Virus record (IMG/VR): IMGVR_UViG_3300021560_000057
Coordinates: 1 to 30,037 of that record
Length of the DNA stretch: 30,037 bases
DNA from: a virus
Taxonomy: Duplodnaviria; Caudoviricetes
Reading direction: 5' to 3' (one strand)
In this document: positions 1,565 to 23,575 of the stretch, piece after piece
Position numbering within the stretch: position 1 is the first letter of the stretch
How the letters are laid out: each line of letters starts with the position of its first letter
The notes under the pieces: generated by a model
Seen by the model: only the letters and a program-made list of their open reading frames with translations
Database searches by the model: none
Told to the model about the DNA's origin: nothing
Made by a program: the position numbers and the translations under genes

Positions 1565-4500
1565 GTGCCTGCGCCCGGCCCGAGTCTGCCCGCGGCGCGT
1601 TATGTGCCGCCCCCGATCCCGTTGCCGCCGACCGCGTTCCCGGTCGACCCCGACGACGTTCCCGATTCCTTAGAAGAAATCTTAAAGAGCGGCGATACCC
1701 GCGAACCGATTGCCCAGGCGCTCGCGTACCTCTTTTACGTCGATTCGACCTTAATCTCGATCCCGGATGCGCCGGTTGACGGCGTAGCCTACGGTCGGCA
1801 GGATGCCGCCTGGGTCCCGATTGAAGGTGCCATTGGGCCACCCGGACCGCCCGGGCCGACCGGGCCAACCGGCGTACAGGGGCCGATGGGGTTACCCGGC
1901 CAGAACGGGCCGCCAGGGCCAGCCGGGCCACCAGGGCCCTTAGGTAACCCCGGACCGCAAGGCCCCAGCGGGCCGCCCGGGGTCCAGGGACCGCCTGGGG
2001 CAGCCTTAAACTTCAAAGGCAATGTCGCGACCCCGGCCAATCTACCGGCGAGCGGGAACGCGATCCAGGACTTCTACAGTGTCACCTCCACGGGGCACGG
2101 GTATTCCTGGAACGGCTCGGCCTGGATCGATGCCGGGCCCTGGATCGGGCCCGCCGGACCGACCGGGCCCACGGGTAACACCGGTGCAATCGGGCCCGCC
2201 GGGCCGCAGGGGGCCCAAGGTAACGCCGGCGCAGTGGGTCCTACCGGGCCGCCGGGAGCCACTGGCAACGCCGCTACGATAGCCGCGGGGCCCGTAACCA
2301 CGTTGGCTCCGGGTTCGCCGGCCACGATCACCAACGTCGGTTCGAGCTCAGCTGCCGTCTTCGATTTTGGTATCCCGCAAGGCGCGACCGGCTCACTTGG
2401 GCCGCAAGGGCCAGTTGGACCCGCCGGGCCCACCGGGCCACAAGGCCCGATCGGGGTAACAGGCAGCCAGGGGCCACAAGGCGCTACCGGGCCAGCCGGG
2501 CCGCAAGGCGCACCTGGAGGCGCCAGCGCCAACACGACCTTGAGCGCAGCCTTTACGATGCCGGCAGTCAACGGGACCGCAACCGCCAGCGTGGTGAACG
2601 CCAGCGTGTTCGGGGTCGGCAACATCGTCTTTATTCCGCCGATCGGTTACCTGTCCGTGAACGCGGTTAACGCCGGCACCAACCAACTGACGCTGGCGAA
2701 CAATCTGGCCGTCGCGGCTAACCTCGCTCCGGGTTCGAGCGCGCCCAGCGGTAACGCTGTAAGCGGGGTCGGGCCGCAAGGGCCCGCGGGTGCGACCGGG
2801 GCGACTGGCGCCACGGGGCCACAGGGGCCGGGCGGTAATACCGGGCCGCAAGGTGCCACTGGTGCCACGGGTGCGACTGGGGCAACCGGAGCCCAAGGGC
2901 CGGCTGGGGCGACGGGTGCTACCGGGCCGCAAGGCCAGGGCTACAACTGGCGCGGCACATGGTTTGCCAGTACGACCTATAACGCTTATGACTCGGTTGG
3001 CCGGAACGGCTCAAGTTATGTATCGGTCACCAGCGCGAATCTGGGCAATGATCCGGCGACCGATACGACGCACTGGAACCTCTTGGCACAGATGGGCGCT
3101 ACCGGAGCTCAGGGCGCGACTGGCGCTACCGGGCCGACCGGGCCGGCAGGCCAAGGTTATTCCTGGAAAGGCACCTGGAGCGCGGCAGTCGCGTACGTGC
3201 CTTATGATACGGTTTCTAGTGCGGGCTCGAGCTACGTCTGCATTGCGGCGCACACGAATCAGGTGCCGCCTAACGCCACCTATTGGAACTTGGTGGCGCA
3301 GCTGGGCGCGACAGGTGCCACGGGTGCGGCTGGAGCCACGGGCGCCCAAGGACCGCAAGGGGCGGCTGGGCCGACTGGAGCCACGGGCGCCCAAGGGCCC
3401 CAGGGGATTCAAGGGGCGACTGGTGCGACCGGGCAAGGCTACACATGGCGGGGTGCCTGGAGCGCCGCCACGGCGTACAACCCTTACGACACGGTCTCGA
3501 GCGCCGGGAGCTCCTATGTTTGTATCCAGGCGCATACCAACATCGCGCCGCCTAACCCGACCTACTGGAATTTGGTGGCGCAGCTCGGGGCCACGGGTGC
3601 CACTGGCCCGACCGGGGCGACTGGCAGCCAAGGGCCCCAAGGTGCCACGGGCAACCCCGGGGCCACCGGTGCACCGGGGACGGCGGCTAGTATCGCGGTT
3701 GGGACCACGAGCACGCTCGTGCCCGGAAGCGCTGCGACGGTGGCTAACTCAGGGTCGAGCTCGGTAGCGGTCTTTGATTTCGGGATCCCGGCAGGTGTAG
3801 CGGGTGCGCCTGGAGCAACGGGAGCGACCGGGCCGACTGGTAACCCTGGGGCGCAAGGTGCCGCGGGCAAGGACGCGGCCACCTTAACCATCGCGAATTT
3901 TACCGTGCCGGCGGTCGGGAGCACGGTCACCGTGTCAGTGGCTGATACGAGCTGGATCGTAGTCGGCCAAATGCTGTACGTCGACACCGCTGGAGGCGGG
4001 GCAGGATTGGCCGGTGCATTCCAGGTTCAATCGAAGACTAGCACCACGGTGACTCTGCTTAACCCGGCGCAGATGCAGCAGATCCCGCTGGCTTCGACCG
4101 GGCAGGCTGGGTTGATGGCACAGCTTTCAGGTCGGTCTAGCGACTACGTCGGGGGCGACAACGCCTGTCACGCTGTCCCTGGCGCAATCCCTGCGGGTAC
4201 AGTGTGGGACTTTGCTGGAGCAACGCTGCCGCCTGGATGGCTCTGGTGCGATGGCAGCGCCGTTGACCGCACTGTTTACGCAGGGCTATTCGCGGCCATC
4301 GGCACCACTTACGGGACGGGAAATGGCACCACCACCTTTAACGTTCCCGATAGTCGCGGACGCGCTTTGATTGGGGCTGGGCAAGGCAGCGGGTTAACCA
4401 ACCGTGTTTTAGCGGCCACCGGCGGTGAAGAAACGCATTTGCTCGTGAGCGCCGAAGTGCCTGCTCACTCTCACAACGTACTATGTTACAACCTGGGCGT

Positions 4501-4642
4501 GGCTTCAGGTGGCTTCGGGCAATATGTCTCTATTAACGCGGGAGGCTACACAGGACAGATTACTACTGATACGCAAGGCGGTGGCGGTGCTCACAATAAC
4601 GTGCCGCCGTTTCTGGTCGTGAACAGAATGATCAAGACATGA
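1565..4642 (+). CDS. Collagen-like tail/head fibre protein with foldon, repeated beta modules and C-terminal tail-collar domain (1025 aa)
   Basis: Long Gly-X-Y tracts; foldon-like [19 protein letters not shown]; three W-x-G-x-W...GSSY...W modules; collar motif [48 protein letters not shown]; HSH; end [16 protein letters not shown]. Confidence 0.92.
2939..3607 (+). repeat. Three ~50-aa carbohydrate-binding-like modules separated by collagen linkers
   Basis: GY.W.G.W...Y..YD.V...GSSYV....N..P....W.L.AQ.G at about 2939, 3155 and 3437; a fourth copy at about 20882 in the third fibre. Confidence 0.8.
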
Positions 4643-6740: not shown

Positions 6741-7235
6741 ATGAACGGTATCAGCCCATTAGTCTGGCAACCCGATGACACGGTCCATCAAGCTTTGAGC
6801 CGGATCGCGAACTCCGGGGATTACAAGGAACCCGTGGCACAATATCTGGCTGCGATAATTGACAAGTTTCTCTTGGGCGGCGCTGCCTCTGGCCCGCCCG
6901 GGCCGCCGGGGCCACAAGGGCCGATCGGCGTACCGGGGCCAGTCGGACCAGCGGGTGAGCAGGGTGCCACTGGGCCAACCGGGCCAGCGGGCGCACCCGG
7001 GCCAGCCGGACCGGCAGGGCCGGTCGGGGAGGCACCAGCTGATGGCACCCCTTACGTGCGCCAGGATCTGGGCTGGGTGCAGGATAAGACCGCACCGGCC
7101 AGCTCGCTGGTGTTAAGCGATGGCACGAACCAGATCACGATCGGGATCGGGCCCGATGGCGATCTGTGGGCCACGCAACAGAGCGGCCCTAATGCCGGCA
7201 AGGGCACGGATTTAACCTTTGGCAAATGGCAATGA
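6741..7235 (+). CDS. Short collagen fibre with foldon-like trimerisation motif (164 aa)
   Basis: Gly-X-Y tract followed by [17 protein letters not shown]; N-terminus similar to that of 1565..4642. Confidence 0.85.
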
Positions 7236-13217: not shown

Positions 13218-14447
13218 ATGAGCTTCGACGAGGAGAACTTCCAACAATATATTATCGCTGCCGGGGTCGAGCTGGCCGCGCCGACCTATGGGACTAGTGT
13301 GCTGGCCCTGAAAAGCTGGATGCGGGGCGAGACAGAGTGTCCACCTGAGGCACTGGCCCGCTGGATCGCGGCACCCCGGCAACCGCCCGGTAAAGGCGAG
13401 CTGGAAGCCCATATCGCCGCGATGAGCCCGCTTGGGCCGCCGGCCCCGGCCCCGATGCAGGTCAGCGCCTTAAGCGCGCGCGTACTGGCTGATCCGGCGA
13501 TTCAGGCCCGGCTTAAAGCCGACCGGGCAAGCCCGGCAGCCGAACCCGAGAGCCCCGGACCGGAGCGCAGTTTAGGCGAATTGTTCGGCCTGAGCCCGCA
13601 ACCGGTCCAGGAACCACGGGAACCGGAGAACGAAGTAGTGGTCCATCCCGAGCCTGCCACCAACGGTGAAGGGCCGGCCTTTGTGATTGACGAGGCGGCT
13701 GGCCGGTACTCGATTTACCCGGCCAGGATCAAGACCAGCGTTTCGGTCCTGATGCCGACTATCCGCGATATTCCGCCGGCGATCTATTTTGGGCACATTG
13801 TGTTTTTCCGCAAGTACGAGCTCGGCCTGGAAATGCAGACCGACACGTTGCTGGTGAGAGCCAGGAACCTCGTCGCGCGCAGGTTCCTGGCTTCTAAAGC
13901 CCAATGGAGCTGGTGGCTGGACAGCGACATCTTGCCGCCGGTCGGGAACGCCGATTGGTTCAAAAAGAAAACCCGGACCGAAACGTTGGGCGCGACCCAA
14001 AGCGGTTACGACGCCCTGGAACGGCTCTTAAGCCATAATTATCCGATTGTCGGGGCGGTCTACGCGGCCCGGACCGCGCACGCCCAGATGATCATCCAAC
14101 CCGATATCGATCCGCGCTCACGCGACGACCCTATAACCGCGGACAAAATCCGTAAAGGACTACTCCATGGACTCATCAATGTGGAATGGCTCGGACTGGG
14201 GTGCACACTCATCCATCGCCGAGTATTTGAGGCAATTGCAAAACAGAGCGCCCCGGACCCAGACCGACGAGCGGGGGAACTGGACTTTTTTCATACCGAA
14301 GGAAGCAAAGGGGAAGACGTGGGTTTCTGTGAACGGGCAACCCTTGCCGGGTTTAAACCGAAACTTGATTGCGACCTCGTCGTCGGCCACCTCGGACGGC
14401 ACTGTTTCCTCCCAGAACACACCAGAGGTATCCAAGCCCGGAAATGA
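13218..14447 (+). CDS. GT2-like (GT-A fold) glycosyltransferase with N-terminal extension (409 aa)
   Basis: ARN..A..FL, WLDSDI (DxD), GLGCTLIHRRVFE, GEDVGFC, VGH motifs; GAGGA RBS. Confidence 0.85.
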   Translation: MSFDEENFQQYIIAAGVELAAPTYGTSVLALKSWMRGETECPPEALARWIAAPRQPPGKGELEAHIAAMSPLGPPAPAPMQVSALSARVLADPAIQARLKADRASPAAEPESPGPERSLGELFGLSPQPVQEPREPENEVVVHPEPATNGEGPAFVIDEAAGRYSIYPARIKTSVSVLMPTIRDIPPAIYFGHIVFFRKYELGLEMQTDTLLVRARNLVARRFLASKAQWSWWLDSDILPPVGNADWFKKKTRTETLGATQSGYDALERLLSHNYPIVGAVYAARTAHAQMIIQPDIDPRSRDDPITADKIRKGLLHGLINVEWLGLGCTLIHRRVFEAIAKQSAPDPDRRAGELDFFHTEGSKGEDVGFCERATLAGFKPKLDCDLVVGHLGRHCFLPEHTRGIQARK

Positions 14448-14454
14448 TGAATGA
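14167..14454 (+). CDS. Candidate overprinted gene in +1 frame of the glycosyltransferase (95 aa)
   Basis: TAAAGGA 7 nt before ATG; stop overlaps ATG 14451; host-frame codon usage turns atypical over this interval. Confidence 0.5.
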   Translation: MDSSMWNGSDWGAHSSIAEYLRQLQNRAPRTQTDERGNWTFFIPKEAKGKTWVSVNGQPLPGLNRNLIATSSSATSDGTVSSQNTPEVSKPGNDE

Positions 14455-14831
14455 GGTTCTTTGTCCTGCAATGGCTGATCAAAGGCCAGCTCCTCATGAT
14501 AGTGATTGTGGCTTATCAGCTTTATCTGGCGATCTCGACCGAGATGCTGGACGAAACCTTAAAACAGGTCGAACGCGTCTCCAGCTGGCCGGTGCAAGCC
14601 TTGAACGTCGGCCTTTTCGTCCTGGTCTTAGCTATCTGTTGGCTCTATCTGCAGAGCACCCGCAAAGATCTCCAGAAATTGCAAAAGACCAACGAAGATG
14701 AGCGACGAGAATATATCGAGGCTCTTAGGACACTGGTCAGCGACACTGCCAAAGTCGTTGAGAGGAACAACGCCATCTTTGAACGAGTCGAGCGCCGGCT
14801 CAGCCGAAACGGTCAGCCCAAAGACGGTTAA
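14451..14831 (+). CDS. Putative holin-like membrane protein (126 aa; alternative start 14544)
   Basis: Hydrophobic segments, then charged helix (GLFVLVLAICWLYLQ..NEDERREYIEAL) resembling BhlA-type holins; basic C-terminus. Confidence 0.55.
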   Translation: MRFFVLQWLIKGQLLMIVIVAYQLYLAISTEMLDETLKQVERVSSWPVQALNVGLFVLVLAICWLYLQSTRKDLQKLQKTNEDERREYIEALRTLVSDTAKVVERNNAIFERVERRLSRNGQPKDG

Positions 14832-15459
14832 ACGACGCCGGATCGGCCCCGACACGGTCAACGACCTGATTTTCTGGGGGATGCAGTTGGCCTTGGTCGC
14901 GATCAGTCTGGCCATTGTCTGGAGCCGATTAAACGCCACTAATCGGGCGATTGAAAACCTGTTCCGGGCTCAAGGCGAAGAACTGGTCTTGGTCCGGCAA
15001 CAGACCGAGGCAGCCCAGAAAAGCGCTAATATCCAGATGATTCAGGCCGAGGAAGCCCGGCAGGCTGAACATACGCGCTCGATCCAGTTCGGGGCCGCTA
15101 TGAACACATTGCAGAGCGTGCTGAAACATTCCGCTGAAATCCAGGCGGCAGTCGACGATACCCTGGCTAAAGCGACCCAGACCAATGATCTGGTACTGGC
15201 GGCCAGCCAACAGACCAAGGTAGCAGCCCAACAAGCGGCCAGTGCCGCCGGCGGGGCTGCGGGCGCAGCGTATCGGGCCGCGGCTGTGTCCCAGCGCACC
15301 GGTGCAGTAGTCGCGACCAAAGTGGTGACAACTAATGCCCGAGACCAGCTCAACGCCCAGAAAGCCGCCCTGGCCCGCAAACAAGCGCAGCTAGCCCGCA
15401 CCATCAAGCAGGTCAAAAAGAACGGCCCAACCATCTTTCAACGTCTCTTTAACCAGTAA
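14698..15459 (+). CDS. Single-pass membrane protein with long coiled coil, i-spanin-like (up to 253 aa)
   Basis: Basic patch KRRR, TM LIFWGMQLALVAISLAIVW, Ala/Gln-rich helix; start uncertain (134-nt overlap if 14698). Confidence 0.6.
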   Translation: MSDENISRLLGHWSATLPKSLRGTTPSLNESSAGSAETVSPKTVKRRRIGPDTVNDLIFWGMQLALVAISLAIVWSRLNATNRAIENLFRAQGEELVLVRQQTEAAQKSANIQMIQAEEARQAEHTRSIQFGAAMNTLQSVLKHSAEIQAAVDDTLAKATQTNDLVLAASQQTKVAAQQAASAAGGAAGAAYRAAAVSQRTGAVVATKVVTTNARDQLNAQKAALARKQAQLARTIKQVKKNGPTIFQRLFNQ

Positions 15460-15463
15460 GCCA

Positions 15464-15754
15464 ATGAGCGAACCCGAAAACGCGCCGATTAAACCGGAAC
15501 CGAAAAAAGAAGGGATCGCGGCTCTGGCCGACGCGTTCAAAGGCGCCGATCCAACCACTAAACTGATTCTGGTCGCGGTAGTATTCCTGGGCGGCGGCAA
15601 TTTCCTCCAAGGGCTTAACTCTAACCATGAACAACGCCGGGAAATCGAGACCGCGTTAAAGGAAATTCACGAGTTGCGCGCGGCCCTGGATCCGTTAAGC
15701 GCCCGGCAAGGCGAAATTTTGAACCTGCTCAAGGAACTCCAAAAACCTAAATGA
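15464..15754 (+). CDS. Small membrane protein with coiled coil (96 aa), possible lysis protein
   Basis: Hydrophobic LILVAVVFLGGGNFL followed by a heptad helix. Confidence 0.65.
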   Translation: MSEPENAPIKPEPKKEGIAALADAFKGADPTTKLILVAVVFLGGGNFLQGLNSNHEQRREIETALKEIHELRAALDPLSARQGEILNLLKELQKPK

Positions 15755-15858
15755 CTCTGGACAGTCCGCCACTAAAGCGGCAAGAAATAATCAAAGTGCG
15801 GTGAAAAAAAATTCGCGGCACTTCTCGAGCTAACCACTAGAAAGAAAACCCACCCATC

Positions 15859-16506
15859 ATGCCAGTCTTAGACGCAGTGTTTGTCGGCAAAGTCTATCTG
15901 CCCGAGATCGGCGGCGGCCCGATTGTACCGCCCGCGCAACCGGGTCAACCACCCGGCGTGGTCAGTCCACCCATCTATTATCCGCCGGTTATTTCAGGGC
16001 CACCCGGGCCGTGGCCAACCCCGCCTATCTACCTGCCACCCGCCGGGGGCGCTCAGCCGCCATTAGGGATCTGGGGACCGCCAGGGCCGTGGCCGACTCC
16101 GCCGATTGCTCCCGGTGGGCCGACGCCGACCCCGCCAATTTATTATCCGCCTGCCGGTCAGCCTCCCGGCATCTGGGGACCGACTGATCCCAGGCCGACG
16201 CCGCCGATTGCGCCCGGTGGTTCGCCACCAGTTATCTCAGGACCACCCGGCCCGTGGCCGACGCCACCGATCTATCTGCCGCCCGATATCATTCCCGGCC
16301 TGAAACCAGAACATCCGATTTACATTCCGCCCCCGAGCGCACCTGGGGTGCCCACCCATCCAATCGTCCTGCCTCCGCCCGAGTCAGGGGAGAAGCCCGA
16401 AATCTTGGAAAACTGGGATGCCAAGACCTATTGGTCAGCGGCGACCGGCTGGGGCGTGGCCATCGTGCCTAGCGCGGGCCATTCTGGTGTACCGACCCCG
16501 TCTTAA
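15859..16506 (+). CDS. Proline-rich repeat protein (215 aa)
   Basis: Repeated PPIY[YL]P, PPGPWPTPPI and GIWGP units; short Trp-rich C-terminal segment. Confidence 0.8.
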   Translation: MPVLDAVFVGKVYLPEIGGGPIVPPAQPGQPPGVVSPPIYYPPVISGPPGPWPTPPIYLPPAGGAQPPLGIWGPPGPWPTPPIAPGGPTPTPPIYYPPAGQPPGIWGPTDPRPTPPIAPGGSPPVISGPPGPWPTPPIYLPPDIIPGLKPEHPIYIPPPSAPGVPTHPIVLPPPESGEKPEILENWDAKTYWSAATGWGVAIVPSAGHSGVPTPS

Positions 16507-16512
16507 AAGCCA

Positions 16513-16710
16513 TTGAACGAAGCGTTCAGTATCGAAGAACTAATCGAGTGCGCCCGGCGCGAGCTGGGCGTACGCCGGCGGGTCTACCGGCGCATGGTGT
16601 TAAACGAAAAGATGCCCGGGACCCAGGCCGATCGCGAGATCGCGTTAATGGAAGCTATTGTGCAGAACCTGGAACGCCAGAAAGAACCAGAACTGGAGTT
16701 TAACTTATGA
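16513..16710 (+). CDS. Small helical phage hypothetical protein (65 aa)
   Basis: TTG start; IECARRELGVRRRVY..MV...KM....ADREIALMEAI; stop overlaps next ATG. Confidence 0.7.
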   Translation: MNEAFSIEELIECARRELGVRRRVYRRMVLNEKMPGTQADREIALMEAIVQNLERQKEPELEFNL

Positions 16711-17405
16711 GCGCTACGGCAGTTGTGAGCTTCGGTACAAACTGGATCATGCAACTCGATGAAAAGCCCGGTGTGCTTTTCTGGAGCTGTCCGTTGGCTG
16801 TCGACGCAGACGGGCACCCGGAAGCCTATCACCCGGGCGGTAGCCCGCCGGGCCTGGATTACCTGGGCAACGCCGGCAGCCCTGGCAACTGGTGGGGCAT
16901 AGCCTGCGATGCCAAAGGCAAACCATACATCCAGGGTGGCGATCACCCCGCGCCGGGTTTTTACGTGTCGACTACGGCCCTGCAAGATAACACGATCCAG
17001 AGTCATAACCCGGCCCGGTACGTCGACAGTGGCCGCATCCCGTTTATCGTGTTGCCCTCCAGCCCAAAGTTCAGCGACAAACAGACCCTGGGCGATCTGG
17101 CGATGTGTTTCAATACCCAGACCGGGAACCTCTCCTGGGCCATCTACGCCGATATTGGCCCGGCTAATGCGATCGGGGAAGGTTCCATGGAACTGTGTAC
17201 CTCTCTGGGTTTGTCCAACAGCCCTAAAAGTGGCGGCACCTCCAAAGAGATTATCGCCATGATTTTCTGGCCGGGATCAAAGATCGGTTGGCCCAGGCCG
17301 ACACCGGAGTTGTCCAAGAAGGCCCATGAGCTGTTCACCGATTGGGGCGGAATCGATTCCTGCCAGGAAGCGATGCCGCAATTTGACTGGAGCAAATTCC
17401 GATGA
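16707..17405 (+). CDS. Glycoside hydrolase family 75 (fungal chitosanase-like) protein, putative endolysin (232 aa)
   Basis: VDADG, YVD...IPFIVLP, LGDLA, AIYADIGP, GEGS and SGG...I.F.GS motifs of GH75; near membrane-protein genes; no signal peptide. Confidence 0.8.
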   Translation: MSATAVVSFGTNWIMQLDEKPGVLFWSCPLAVDADGHPEAYHPGGSPPGLDYLGNAGSPGNWWGIACDAKGKPYIQGGDHPAPGFYVSTTALQDNTIQSHNPARYVDSGRIPFIVLPSSPKFSDKQTLGDLAMCFNTQTGNLSWAIYADIGPANAIGEGSMELCTSLGLSNSPKSGGTSKEIIAMIFWPGSKIGWPRPTPELSKKAHELFTDWGGIDSCQEAMPQFDWSKFR

Positions 17406-20404: not shown

Positions 20405-23400
20405 ATGCCAAACGGACTACCACAATCTGGTGCGCCACCCAGCCCCACCGAACGCATTGTGCGGGTGATTAACGTGGGCCAGATCGCCCGGGGTTTACCG
20501 GTGGTCTTTAACGCGCTCCCCGGGATTGTGGGCACACCCGGGCCGCAAGGTCCCCCGGGTGATCCGGCTTATACGACCACCGCTAATACCTTTGTGGTAC
20601 CCGCGGTCAACTCAACCGTGACGGTTACGGTCGGCAACACCGACTGGATGGTGCCCGGTCAGAGCCTCTTTATCCATGGGGCCGGCTATTACACGGTCAG
20701 TTCACTCTTTGATGCGACCCACGTTATTGTGATTAATCCGGGTAGCCCCGGCAACGCGATCTCTGGTACGGTGATTGCCGCGAACAGCGGCATCTCGCCT
20801 GCCGGCAGCCAGGGCGCGACCGGACCCACGGGCTCGACCGGACCCCAGGGGCCGATCGGGCCAGCAGGGCCGCAAGGGACCGGCATTACCTGGATGGGTT
20901 CCTGGAGCGCGGCGACCGCTTACAGCGTTAATCAGGCGGTTACCTACGGTGGCAGCTCTTATGTGGCCGTGGCCGCTTCTACCGGAGTCGTGCCCGGCAC
21001 CGACGCGACCAAATGGCAGGTGTTCGCTGCTCAGGGGGCAACCGGGGCGACCGGTTCGACGGGCGCGACCGGGCCTGCCGGCCCGGCGGGCGCTGCGGGT
21101 ACACCCGGCCCGGCCTCGACCAGCAACACCACGGCTAATTTCAGTCAGCCGGCAGTTAACGGCACGGTCACGGTGACCATGGGTAACACCACCTGGATGC
21201 CACAGGGATCTATTGTCTACATTGTCGGAGGCGGTTATTACGAGGTGCAGCAGGTCTTAAACTCGACTCAAGCCATCCTGCTTAATACCGGCTATACCGG
21301 TAACGCCGCCCAGGGCACCGTGGTTAATACCGGTAGTCTGGTCAGTGCCGGCGGCGTCGCCGGCGCCAGCGGCGCCGCGGGTGCCACCGGGCCGGTCGGG
21401 CCCGCCGGACCCAATGGCACCGCCGGCGTTAACGCGTACTCGGTTTTACAAGCCGCTTTTGCGATGCCGCAGATCCAGGCGGCCACCAATATCCAGGTCG
21501 ATCAAAGCACCTGGATGAGCGCTAACCTGATCGTTTTTATCCCGAGCGCAGGTTATTTCCAGATCACCACGGTCATCAGCCCGACTGCCGTCACCATCCT
21601 GAACTTGGGTTATACCGGCAACGCCAGCCCCGGCACCACGATCGCCAGTGGCTCTTATGTGTACCCGGCAGGCGCACCCCAGGTGTTAAACCGGGAATAT
21701 TACGCCACCGATTTCGAGAACGGCTGGGGCGACTGGGCCATAAACGCTAACGGCGCTAACACGGGCAGCGACCAGACTCAGCCGGTGGCAAGCGTTGACG
21801 GGGCGAACGCGTTGGGTGTAGCCCGGATTTATGCCTTGACCGGCGGCACTTCGATCGTAGCCAGCCTGGGCGCATTTATGACGACGCCCGGGCAAGGTAA
21901 CCCGGGTGGGCCGATCCTCCTCACTGGCAACAACCGGTTCTATTTCCATACCCGGCTAGCGTTAACTAACCTTTCCAATGTCAGCGACCGGTTCATTATC
22001 ATGCTGGGCCTGGGCGATAACCCGGGGGCAGGGTACGTCTCGAGCCAGAACGCGATCTTTTTCTATTATACCGATAACACCCTGGGCGGCAGCTGGGGTT
22101 GTTATTCCCGGGTCAGCAACACCCAGTACGGCAGCATCAATTCGGGCGTGGCGTTGGCCGCGCAAAAAAGTTTTGATTTAGCCTGCACGATCGATAACGC
22201 GTTTGCCACTTTCTCGATCGGTCAAGGCGGGGCCGCTCCGGTCCAGGTGGGCCAGATCCCGATCTCGCAACTACCTTTAAACGTGGCCCTGACCCCGTTT
22301 ATGACGGTCTACAAGACCGCAGGCTCAGGCGGCTACGGCATTATCCGGGCAGACAGCTACGAACAGGAGATGCTCTTTAGCGGGGCCGCTTTCAAGTTCC
22401 GGCAACCCGCGATGATCGGGCCACCCGGCCAGAACGCTTACACGGGCACCACCGCGGCTTTTACGACCCCGGCAGTCGGGTCCAACGTGACCGTCACGGT
22501 GCAGAGCTCGCTCTGGATCGCACCGGGCCAGACCGTCTATATCCAGGGCGCGGGCGCCTATCAGGTCATGAGCGTGCCCAACGCTCAGCAGATCAGTGTC
22601 CAGAACCTGGGTTCGACCGGGAACGTGGCCCAGAACACGGTGATTAACGCCGGCAGTCTGGTCAGCGCTTCGGGCGTAGCCGGGCCCCAGGGCGTGATCG
22701 GGCCACAAGGTGCCACCGGGCCCCAGGGAGCCCCGGGCGCAGCGGCCTACACCACCACCACGAACACATTTAACCAACCGTCGATCGGTGCCCTGGCTAA
22801 TGTGCCGGTCGGCAACGCGCTCTGGATGACCCCGGGTCAGGTGATCTATATCGCCGGCGGCGGTTATTACACCGTTAGCAGTGTCCCCAACCAGCAGAAT
22901 GTTAGTGTTACTAACTTAGGTTATGCCGGCAACGTGGCACCCGGCACGGTCGTGAACGTTAACGAACCGATCAGCCCGGGCGGTATTCAAGGTTCTACCG
23001 GCGGCCCGATCCCGACCGGGACAGTCCTGGATTTTGCGGGCCCGAGCGCGCCGGTAGGGTTTTTGATGTGTGACGGCAGCGCGGTCAGCCGGGCTACCTA
23101 TGGCGCTTTGTACACGGCCCTGGGCGGCGCGAACTCGCCCTGGGGTCAGGGTGACGGTTCGATCACGTTTAATCTGCCGGATCTGCGCTCGCGCGTCAGT
23201 ATCGGTGCCGGCCAGGGTAGCGGGTTAACCAACCGGGCGCTGGCGGCAGTGGGCGGGGTCGAAACCGTGACCTTGCTCCTGTCCCAGATCCCGAGCCACA
23301 CACATCCTTACACCTGGACTGATAACGGCCACAACCACCAGTTTAACGATCCATCGCATCGGCACCAGTACACGTGGCCTTACGGATCTGGCACGCAATG

Positions 23401-23575
23401 GCAGGCGGGCTCAGGCTGGGGTTTTCAAGCGGACAATACCACTTACAGCGCTACCGGGGGTTACAACAGCCCCAGCGGATCCGGGATCAGTTTTTCGCTG
23501 GGTAACTCCGGTGGCGGCGGCGGCCACGAAAATATGCCGCCTTTTGTCGCGCTCAATAAAATCGTAAAAACTTAA
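20405..23575 (+). CDS. Fibre protein with collagen linkers, five ~83-aa beta modules, lectin-like insert and C-terminal tail-collar domain (1056 aa)
   Basis: Five F..P....V...W...G..I.G.G.Y.V...N.G..GN...G repeats; IPTGTVLDFAGPSAPVGFLMCDGSAVSR collar; HTH/HNH/HRH motifs; end HENMPPFVALNKIVKT. Confidence 0.92.
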   Translation: MPNGLPQSGAPPSPTERIVRVINVGQIARGLPVVFNALPGIVGTPGPQGPPGDPAYTTTANTFVVPAVNSTVTVTVGNTDWMVPGQSLFIHGAGYYTVSSLFDATHVIVINPGSPGNAISGTVIAANSGISPAGSQGATGPTGSTGPQGPIGPAGPQGTGITWMGSWSAATAYSVNQAVTYGGSSYVAVAASTGVVPGTDATKWQVFAAQGATGATGSTGATGPAGPAGAAGTPGPASTSNTTANFSQPAVNGTVTVTMGNTTWMPQGSIVYIVGGGYYEVQQVLNSTQAILLNTGYTGNAAQGTVVNTGSLVSAGGVAGASGAAGATGPVGPAGPNGTAGVNAYSVLQAAFAMPQIQAATNIQVDQSTWMSANLIVFIPSAGYFQITTVISPTAVTILNLGYTGNASPGTTIASGSYVYPAGAPQVLNREYYATDFENGWGDWAINANGANTGSDQTQPVASVDGANALGVARIYALTGGTSIVASLGAFMTTPGQGNPGGPILLTGNNRFYFHTRLALTNLSNVSDRFIIMLGLGDNPGAGYVSSQNAIFFYYTDNTLGGSWGCYSRVSNTQYGSINSGVALAAQKSFDLACTIDNAFATFSIGQGGAAPVQVGQIPISQLPLNVALTPFMTVYKTAGSGGYGIIRADSYEQEMLFSGAAFKFRQPAMIGPPGQNAYTGTTAAFTTPAVGSNVTVTVQSSLWIAPGQTVYIQGAGAYQVMSVPNAQQISVQNLGSTGNVAQNTVINAGSLVSASGVAGPQGVIGPQGATGPQGAPGAAAYTTTTNTFNQPSIGALANVPVGNALWMTPGQVIYIAGGGYYTVSSVPNQQNVSVTNLGYAGNVAPGTVVNVNEPISPGGIQGSTGGPIPTGTVLDFAGPSAPVGFLMCDGSAVSRATYGALYTALGGANSPWGQGDGSITFNLPDLRSRVSIGAGQGSGLTNRALAAVGGVETVTLLLSQIPSHTHPYTWTDNGHNHQFNDPSHRHQYTWPYGSGTQWQAGSGWGFQADNTTYSATGGYNSPSGSGISFSLGNSGGGGGHENMPPFVALNKIVKT

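Follow-up and report, generated by a model that had tools for sequence, protein, structure and literature searches.

Genes read out of frame within another phage gene are known from phiX174, in which gene E lies in gene D and encodes a membrane lysis protein, and from T7, in which genes 19.2 and 19.3 lie inside the terminase gene. The reading frame described here, nested in a putative glycosyltransferase (GT) gene, resembles these in lying out of frame within a phage gene whose own function would be retained; unlike the product of phiX174 E, its product has no hydrophobic segment, and no sequence relation to E or to T7 19.2/19.3 was found. A single-gene lysis protein of the phiX174 E or MS2 L type was rejected as a candidate because the nested protein has no transmembrane segment.

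The arrangement also resembles that of the lambda spanin genes Rz and Rz1, as given in the parts of Kongari et al. 2018 (PMC6139136) consulted, as the nested frame is in +1 on the same strand, occupies the 3′ part of its host gene and ends at about the end of that gene. It departs from Rz/Rz1 in that a predicted GT-A enzyme, not an i-spanin, is encoded by the host gene and that the nested protein lacks a signal peptide, a lipobox and an N-terminal Cys. The original prediction that the product is not an Rz1-type spanin is correct, given the missing lipobox Cys and the predicted GT-A fold of the host gene.

Young overprinted viral proteins, in the portions of Sabath et al. 2012 (PMC3494269) and Pavesi 2021 (PMC8227390) consulted, are restricted in range, accessory, biased towards disorder and under weak purifying selection. 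The present frame agrees with that description in having a narrower phylogenetic range than the ancestral frame, a codon usage unlike that of the genome, weak purifying selection and a Ser-rich, probably disorder-prone product. The sets in those sources are mostly from small eukaryotic viruses and have products shown experimentally, whereas this locus belongs to a tailed dsDNA phage known from metagenomic sequence alone. Overprinted genes, and such an arrangement, are already known in phages; the protein family was not found elsewhere, and the more unusual aspect is the overlap on what is, in the model, the ordered core of a GT. No paper describing a nested gene within a glycosyltransferase of a phage came up in the full-text literature searched, a collection with only a minority of subscription papers in it.

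The window, which is the whole stretch of DNA analysed, is the entire 30,037-base contig of a tailed phage. Its frame at 14167-14454 is probably a translated gene under selection, and likely a de novo overprinted accessory gene, as judged from a conserved ATG, an open frame with tight boundaries, frozen synonymous sites and its absence from the outgroup. The features of the locus are as follows.

13218..14447, + strand: GT host (ancestral) gene, 409 aa, stop 14445-14447; conserved N-terminal segment, Pro/Glu-rich linker and C-terminal domain of predicted GT-A fold (~13725-14447)
14134-14136, + strand: TAA, the last upstream +1 stop in the window
14137..14166, + strand: probable initiation region, A-rich and weakly folded in seven of seven loci
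14153-14159, + strand: SD-like TAAAGGA, in the window clade only
14167..14454, + strand: overprinted open reading frame (ORF) in the +1 frame of the GT gene, 95 aa
14209..14253, + strand: predicted amphipathic helix, nested residues 15-29; S15, Y20, L21, L24 and P29 invariant in all eight members
14287..14364, + strand: F-x-I-P-x3-K-G...S...L-P...R-N motif, nested residues 41-66, invariant in all eight members
14451..14831, + strand: next gene, 126 aa, two hydrophobic segments, ATG 3 nt past the GT stop

The predicted glycosyltransferase gene and the frame within it

The host gene is predicted to encode a GT-A-fold enzyme with a DxD-type motif. The domain carries the motifs WLDSD (DSD invariant), HRRVFE, GEDxxF and GH; it matches PHROG 12406 ('glycosyltransferase') weakly (E = 0.004), and its GenBank homologues are annotated as putative glycosyltransferases. 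The AlphaFold2 model of the domain (pLDDT 77, pTM 0.80) gave only GT-A glycosyltransferases among the Foldseek matches listed (best E 2.3e-7, TM ~0.5). These include STIV A197 (2c0n) and the collagen glycosyltransferases COLGALT1 (9evj), LH3 (6fxr) and mimivirus R699 (9dyt), which share the fold at 11-16% identity and TM ~0.5. None of these four is known to contain a nested gene. The first 45 residues of the GT (13218-13360) are conserved in both clades (GVExAAPxxGTxxxxLKxWMRG) and have a helix-turn-helix-like appearance by eye, with no Pfam match.

The nested ORF spans the last 93 GT codons, or 39% of the modelled domain, including the motifs HRRVFE, GEDxxF and GH, and 42 of the GT residues in the overlap sit in modelled helices or strands. 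As it ends 7 nt past the GT stop, it is strictly overlapped and not wholly embedded. The features first reported for it, namely a +1 frame open for 95 codons from ATG 14167, TAAAGGA 7 nt before that ATG and a TGA (14452-14454) overlapping the ATG at 14451, are all present. The reported shift in GT codon usage is real, with GC3 at 0.53 in the overlap and 0.75 upstream in the domain, and A3 at 0.29 and 0.12, respectively. Among 5522 overlapping 93-codon windows from other genes, A3 is as high in 0.5%, GC3 as low in 2.5% and the codon score as low in 5%. The shift starts ~50-80 nt 5′ of the nested ATG, and codon usage in the nested frame is no better than that of other open +1 frames.

Conditional on the GT protein and on the genome's codon usage, the probability of finding no +1 stop is 0.004-0.007, a value uncorrected for the number of places inspected. 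The 103-codon stop-free stretch is the fifth longest in +1 within the genes of the window, and since four longer stretches lie in other genes the nested ORF is only suggestive from the window alone. One of the other stop-free +1 stretches, of 334 codons at 2763-3767 within a collagen tail-fibre gene (ORF 2790-3767, 325 aa), is probably a by-product of Gly-X-Y repeats. An ATG-started +1 ORF of 117 aa with a poor codon score is found at 16909-17262, within the GH75-like gene 16707-17405. The antisense ORF 14160-14471 was ruled out as a gene by stops in two relatives (L083 and L087).

Conservation of the start codon and the open frame

Scans that used the GT alignment gave seven distinct close loci with 52-100% GT identity (the window, L083, L002, L085, L086, L087 and L089). 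In all, 107 of 115 loci were scored and merged to 78 distinct ones, the seven close loci and 71 distant homologues (<45% identity); before counting, L082 was recognised as the window itself, L088 and L097, which match L002, were counted once, and the partial L084 was dropped. The seven carriers, which belong to a group of uncultured soil phages, fall into two clades, the window with L083 (and the near-identical partial L084) on one side and the five other loci on the other.

The ATG and the open +1 frame occur together in seven of seven close loci and in one of the 71 distant homologues (L008). At the site of the ATG, which lies at one and the same GT codon in all seven, the GT reads His (CAT) or Tyr (TAT) and then Gly; the older GT frame is open and conserved in all loci. 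The original prediction had named stops in the frame or a lost SD or ATG in close homologues as evidence against the gene; no stop and no lost ATG occurs, but the SD is missing from five of the seven loci. The nearest outgroup (L090-L096 and L003; 39-44% identity) has the same gene neighbourhood, no ATG at this position and 0-5 stops. On these alignments the nested frame is restricted to a subclade of the GT family. Among close GT homologues known as proteins only, 18 of 20 keep the His/Tyr-Gly pair compatible with the nested ATG; the other two (P0003 and P0005) have Arg-Gly, so no ATG is possible. Contigs from four DNA runs compared with the window gave partial relatives, whose listed differences are largely L083-like, and no further full locus among the matches listed; the genome and GenBank phage collections gave distant GT homologues only.

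In each carrier locus 2.0-4.2 +1 stops are expected in the overlap and none is observed, whereas in the upstream GT domain of the same seven loci 38 are expected and 38 observed. The probability of an open frame for a single locus of the larger clade is ~0.06. The +1 frame is alone among the five alternative frames in being open throughout the seven loci, and its 93 codons in the GT overlap form the longest +1 stretch open in all genomes compared, against shared stretches of at most 43 codons in five other shared genes (two to four genomes each). The boundaries are tight at both ends. The last upstream +1 stop lies 4-26 codons before the ATG at positions that differ among the seven loci, and the +1 frame closes again 1-4 codons (4-13 nt) past the GT stop in every one of them, with six kinds of downstream context among the loci; a +1 stop is equally close in 13 of 55 gene starts used as a null and in two of six cases in the outgroup.

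Chance together with shared ancestry, with a recent exchange of the GT 3′ half masking decay, is a highly improbable account of this pattern. The pairwise distances in the larger clade do look mosaic, the frame is open in five of the 71 distant homologues (the ATG is present in 15), L008 has both, and the carrier DNA comes from two clades only. The distant loci with a frame open by chance have close relatives in which it is broken (L093 against L094; L005 and L008 against L006, L010, L012 and L015). When neutral synonymous evolution was simulated from an open ancestor with the ATG, upstream branch lengths left both start and frame intact in all seven loci in 0 of 3000 runs, and even branch lengths derived from the overlap, a circular assumption, did so in only 13-23 of 3000; a simpler model agrees. 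GT proteins differ by 33-41% in the overlap across the deep split, and a member from a third lineage, P0028, fits the family.

P0028 is a protein of 93 aa found by a profile search of 1.84 billion proteins (E 1.5e-21). It is 40-51% identical to each member, begins at the homologous Met and retains 18 of the 24 unforced invariant residues, where 9.1 are expected; this agreement is biased upward and counts for less, as the protein was found with the family profile and judged from the protein alone. The carrier sample is two clades and one protein, and pairs are not independent.

Synonymous constraint and probable selection on the nested frame

The reduced synonymous variation in GT homologues proposed as a check of the nested gene was found in the overlap. 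Mean synonymous difference among carriers falls from 0.45 upstream to 0.29-0.30, while in the outgroup it stays at 0.52-0.53. At GT positions with the same residue in all seven loci, 17 of 46 codons in the overlap and 3 of 47 upstream are invariant (Fisher p = 3.4e-4), and 10 of the 17 are non-preferred (e.g. GTA, CTC, GGG and TTT); the outgroup shows no such effect (9/55 against 7/66, p = 0.42). Compared with other genes, invariant codons number 22 of 51 against 113 of 563 (p = 5.7e-4). For deep pairs, the synonymous distance in the overlap is 0.45, which windows of gene 17402 match at 0.45-0.51.

Across the deep split the +1 protein is 43-52% identical, in both halves, where ~30% is expected (z 2.9-4.6 for five pairs, and -1.2 to 0.8 upstream); the controls included a window with z = 3.1 and an outgroup pair with z = 2.4. 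Nested L60 persists although the GT residue there varies among three (CTT/ACT/GTT). Within the larger clade, +1-silent changes occur at the upstream rate (0.100 against 0.100), whereas GT-silent changes that alter the +1 protein are halved (0.249 against 0.459). The ratio dNN/dNS in the overlap is 0.53 [0.30-0.88] for close pairs and 0.73 [0.50-1.08] for all pairs, not significantly below upstream (P = 0.13 and 0.14, respectively); a four-genome set gives 0.79, a value that windows of the capsid-like gene also span (0.64-1.13). The dN/dS-type support for the nested protein is modest. Selection would appear to act on the nested protein, and not on the nucleotides alone.

A constraint on the nucleotides themselves, through an RNA structure, an internal promoter or a protein-binding region with the open +1 frame as a by-product, is an unlikely alternative that would fit the modest frame-specific test. 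Synonymous variation among carriers drops 70-90 nt before the nested ATG (14076-14166), further than an initiation site usually needs, and an 8-bp purine/pyrimidine hairpin can be drawn at ~14273-14292 in the consensus of the seven loci. The covariation terms for that hairpin are near zero (-0.28 and -0.46) with mostly A-U/G-U exchanges, the region folds no better than shuffled sequences (z = +1.4), and the scans gave no Rfam, sigma-70-like, terminator or conserved repeat signal. The contrast between +1-silent and +1-altering changes in the larger clade argues against such a constraint, and a DNA or RNA element would leave the stops immediately after the GT end unexplained.

Programmed ribosomal frameshifting from the GT into +1, which would yield a GT with an alternative C-terminus, is about as improbable as the account by chance. 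The invariant TTT-TTY codons at ~14287-14292 would permit re-pairing of tRNA-Phe in +1. Upstream of this site, nested residues M1, S3, S15, Y20, L21 and L24 are equally conserved and the ATG is retained in all seven loci; in L002 and L089 the upstream stops leave four codons before the ATG, a stretch with no slippery run.

The predicted nested protein, its likely expression and its setting

Translation of the nested gene would start at ATG 14167 through the A-rich, weakly folded region before it, with the SD-like word helping the subclade of the window only. Conservation of the SD, the ATG and the frame had been proposed as a joint check; the ATG and frame are conserved in seven of seven loci and the SD is not (two of seven). 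AAAGGA, which encodes Lys-Gly in the GT, is found only in the window and L083 (and the partial L084) and is absent from the five loci of the other clade, in which an A-rich, weakly folded region occupies its place. The start regions fold at -1.4 to -5.2 kcal/mol in the seven loci; the mean of 38 gene starts is -4.9 kcal/mol and that of 269 other ATGs is -8.4. The nested start regions lie at the 83rd-99th percentile of other ATGs and in this resemble true starts. SD-like words precede 10 of the 38 presumed gene starts and 16 of the 269 other ATGs, so that SD use is partial in these phages. Since Met5 is missing from P0028 and from five protein-only larger-clade members, Met1 is the preferred start of the two. 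The codon at 14160-14162 is CTA in the window, CAA in L083, L084 and three other runs, and ACT in one run, which makes this codon, between the SD-like word and the ATG, a local variant.

The gene at 14451 has no family match above the cut-off and is unmatched after the GT in relatives; its earlier label, holin-like, is unsupported by the databases searched. The GT's own stop overlaps the start of the following ORF as ATGA in each of the six relatives. These downstream ORFs represent five distinct genes, all unlike that at 14451 (the one in L083 weakly resembles window gene 15464). A role in coupling translation into lysis genes, which the original prediction had considered possible, does not hold as a conserved purpose, as the downstream genes of relatives differ and are coupled to the GT stop; a lysis link would be particular to the genome of the window. 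Of the nested-gene prediction as a whole, the frame, the ATG and the synonymous reduction are borne out, and the SD and the lysis coupling are not.

It is very unlikely that the ORF is translated only as a ribosome relay to the next gene (the holin-like gene in the window), the peptide being irrelevant. The position of the nested stop at the start of the next gene in all seven loci, with an ATGA overlap with 14451 in the window, would suit a relay. A relay needs only an open frame, yet the 24 unforced nested residues are invariant across the deep split, and the next ORFs of the six relatives already overlap the GT stop. With the nested gene taken as a protein-coding gene, ribosomes may still be handed on, since its stop lies within the first codons of the following gene, and this would be secondary.

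The nested proteins of the eight members are 88-95 aa long and soluble, with 11-19% Ser. The window protein has no Cys, lipobox or hydrophobic segment (maximum 19-residue hydropathy 0.07); in all eight members there is no Cys in the first 78 residues, maximum hydropathy is 0.07-0.84 and a strong helical moment is present at residues 16-31. The AlphaFold2 model (pLDDT 53.8, pTM 0.20) shows, at low confidence, a helix at 17-27 (pLDDT ~60) and two short strands, and the earlier impression of real beta structure finds no confident model behind it (pLDDT 54). The ESM Atlas model of P0028 has a pLDDT of 0.36.

Word-index searches gave no homologue of the nested protein outside the GT-derived family, and searches against Pfam, NCBIfam, PADLOC and PDB sequences gave no match. 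PHROGs gave a weak match of unknown function only (phrog_6029, best E 6e-4, three of eight members), and in the ESM Atlas the window protein had no usable match and P0028 matched nothing but unnamed clusters, at no more than 0.91. Two further candidates (P0029 and P0030, E ~2-6e-4) were rejected as chance matches, being to short repeats of long, unrelated proteins. A collection of 15 billion proteins contains none of the seven nested proteins translated from DNA, and only one relative had been called, on a 615-bp contig; the nested gene has been missed by gene callers. By these searches the nested protein is a new protein family with no unrelated stand-alone homologue found.

The gene would have arisen in the ancestor of one phage clade, overprinted on the older GT gene where this encodes its structured C-terminal half. 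Internal initiation would then likely give a small soluble accessory protein, predicted to act by binding a partner; our guess is a partly disordered chain in which the amphipathic helix (15-29) and the FxIP-x3-KG motif fold on that partner. The best guess at this partner, still a doubtful one, is the GT, or else some other product of the head/glycosylation module around it, as the ORF's occurrence follows that of the GT and of no downstream gene. Also doubtful is the reading in which the new family, born on the catalytic core of the GT, now serves as its built-in partner, a regulator or targeting subunit genetically inseparable from it; if true, this would be a datable gene birth over ordered enzyme sequence and not over a flexible linker, with extant outgroups that lack the gene. 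The locus would be an instance of a gene being born in a tailed phage, one for which carriers (>50% GT identity) and non-carriers (~40-45%) have the same gene neighbourhood, so that the steps from non-coding frame to gene are traceable. It suggests that a second protein can be written over a conserved enzyme core as well as over a linker or a coiled-coil spanin.

The main family matches in the window are to tail-fibre genes with collagen and collar domains, and the GH75-like gene is below the cut-off. Genes 8195, 11516 and 18580 are taken to be portal-like, scaffold-like and capsid-like, respectively, from their size, order and conservation; the family libraries searched gave no names for their products. 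Between the GT and the conserved gene 17402 lies a highly variable slot (14448-17400 in the window), which holds membrane, coiled-coil and GH75-like genes in the window and FkbM-type methyltransferases and other genes in relatives (L002, L085, L089, L090, L091, L096 and L003). At 15859-16506 a Pro/Gly-rich repetitive protein of 215 aa without family match is encoded. Capsid glycosylation has been suggested for phage GTs in the part of PMC11256854 consulted. The phage also encodes three collagen-repeat proteins (1565-4642, 6741-7235 and 20405-23575), and collagen glycosyltransferases, with STIV A197, are among the top fold matches of the GT; these proteins might be GT substrates, with a TM of only ~0.5 being the generic level for GT-A folds.
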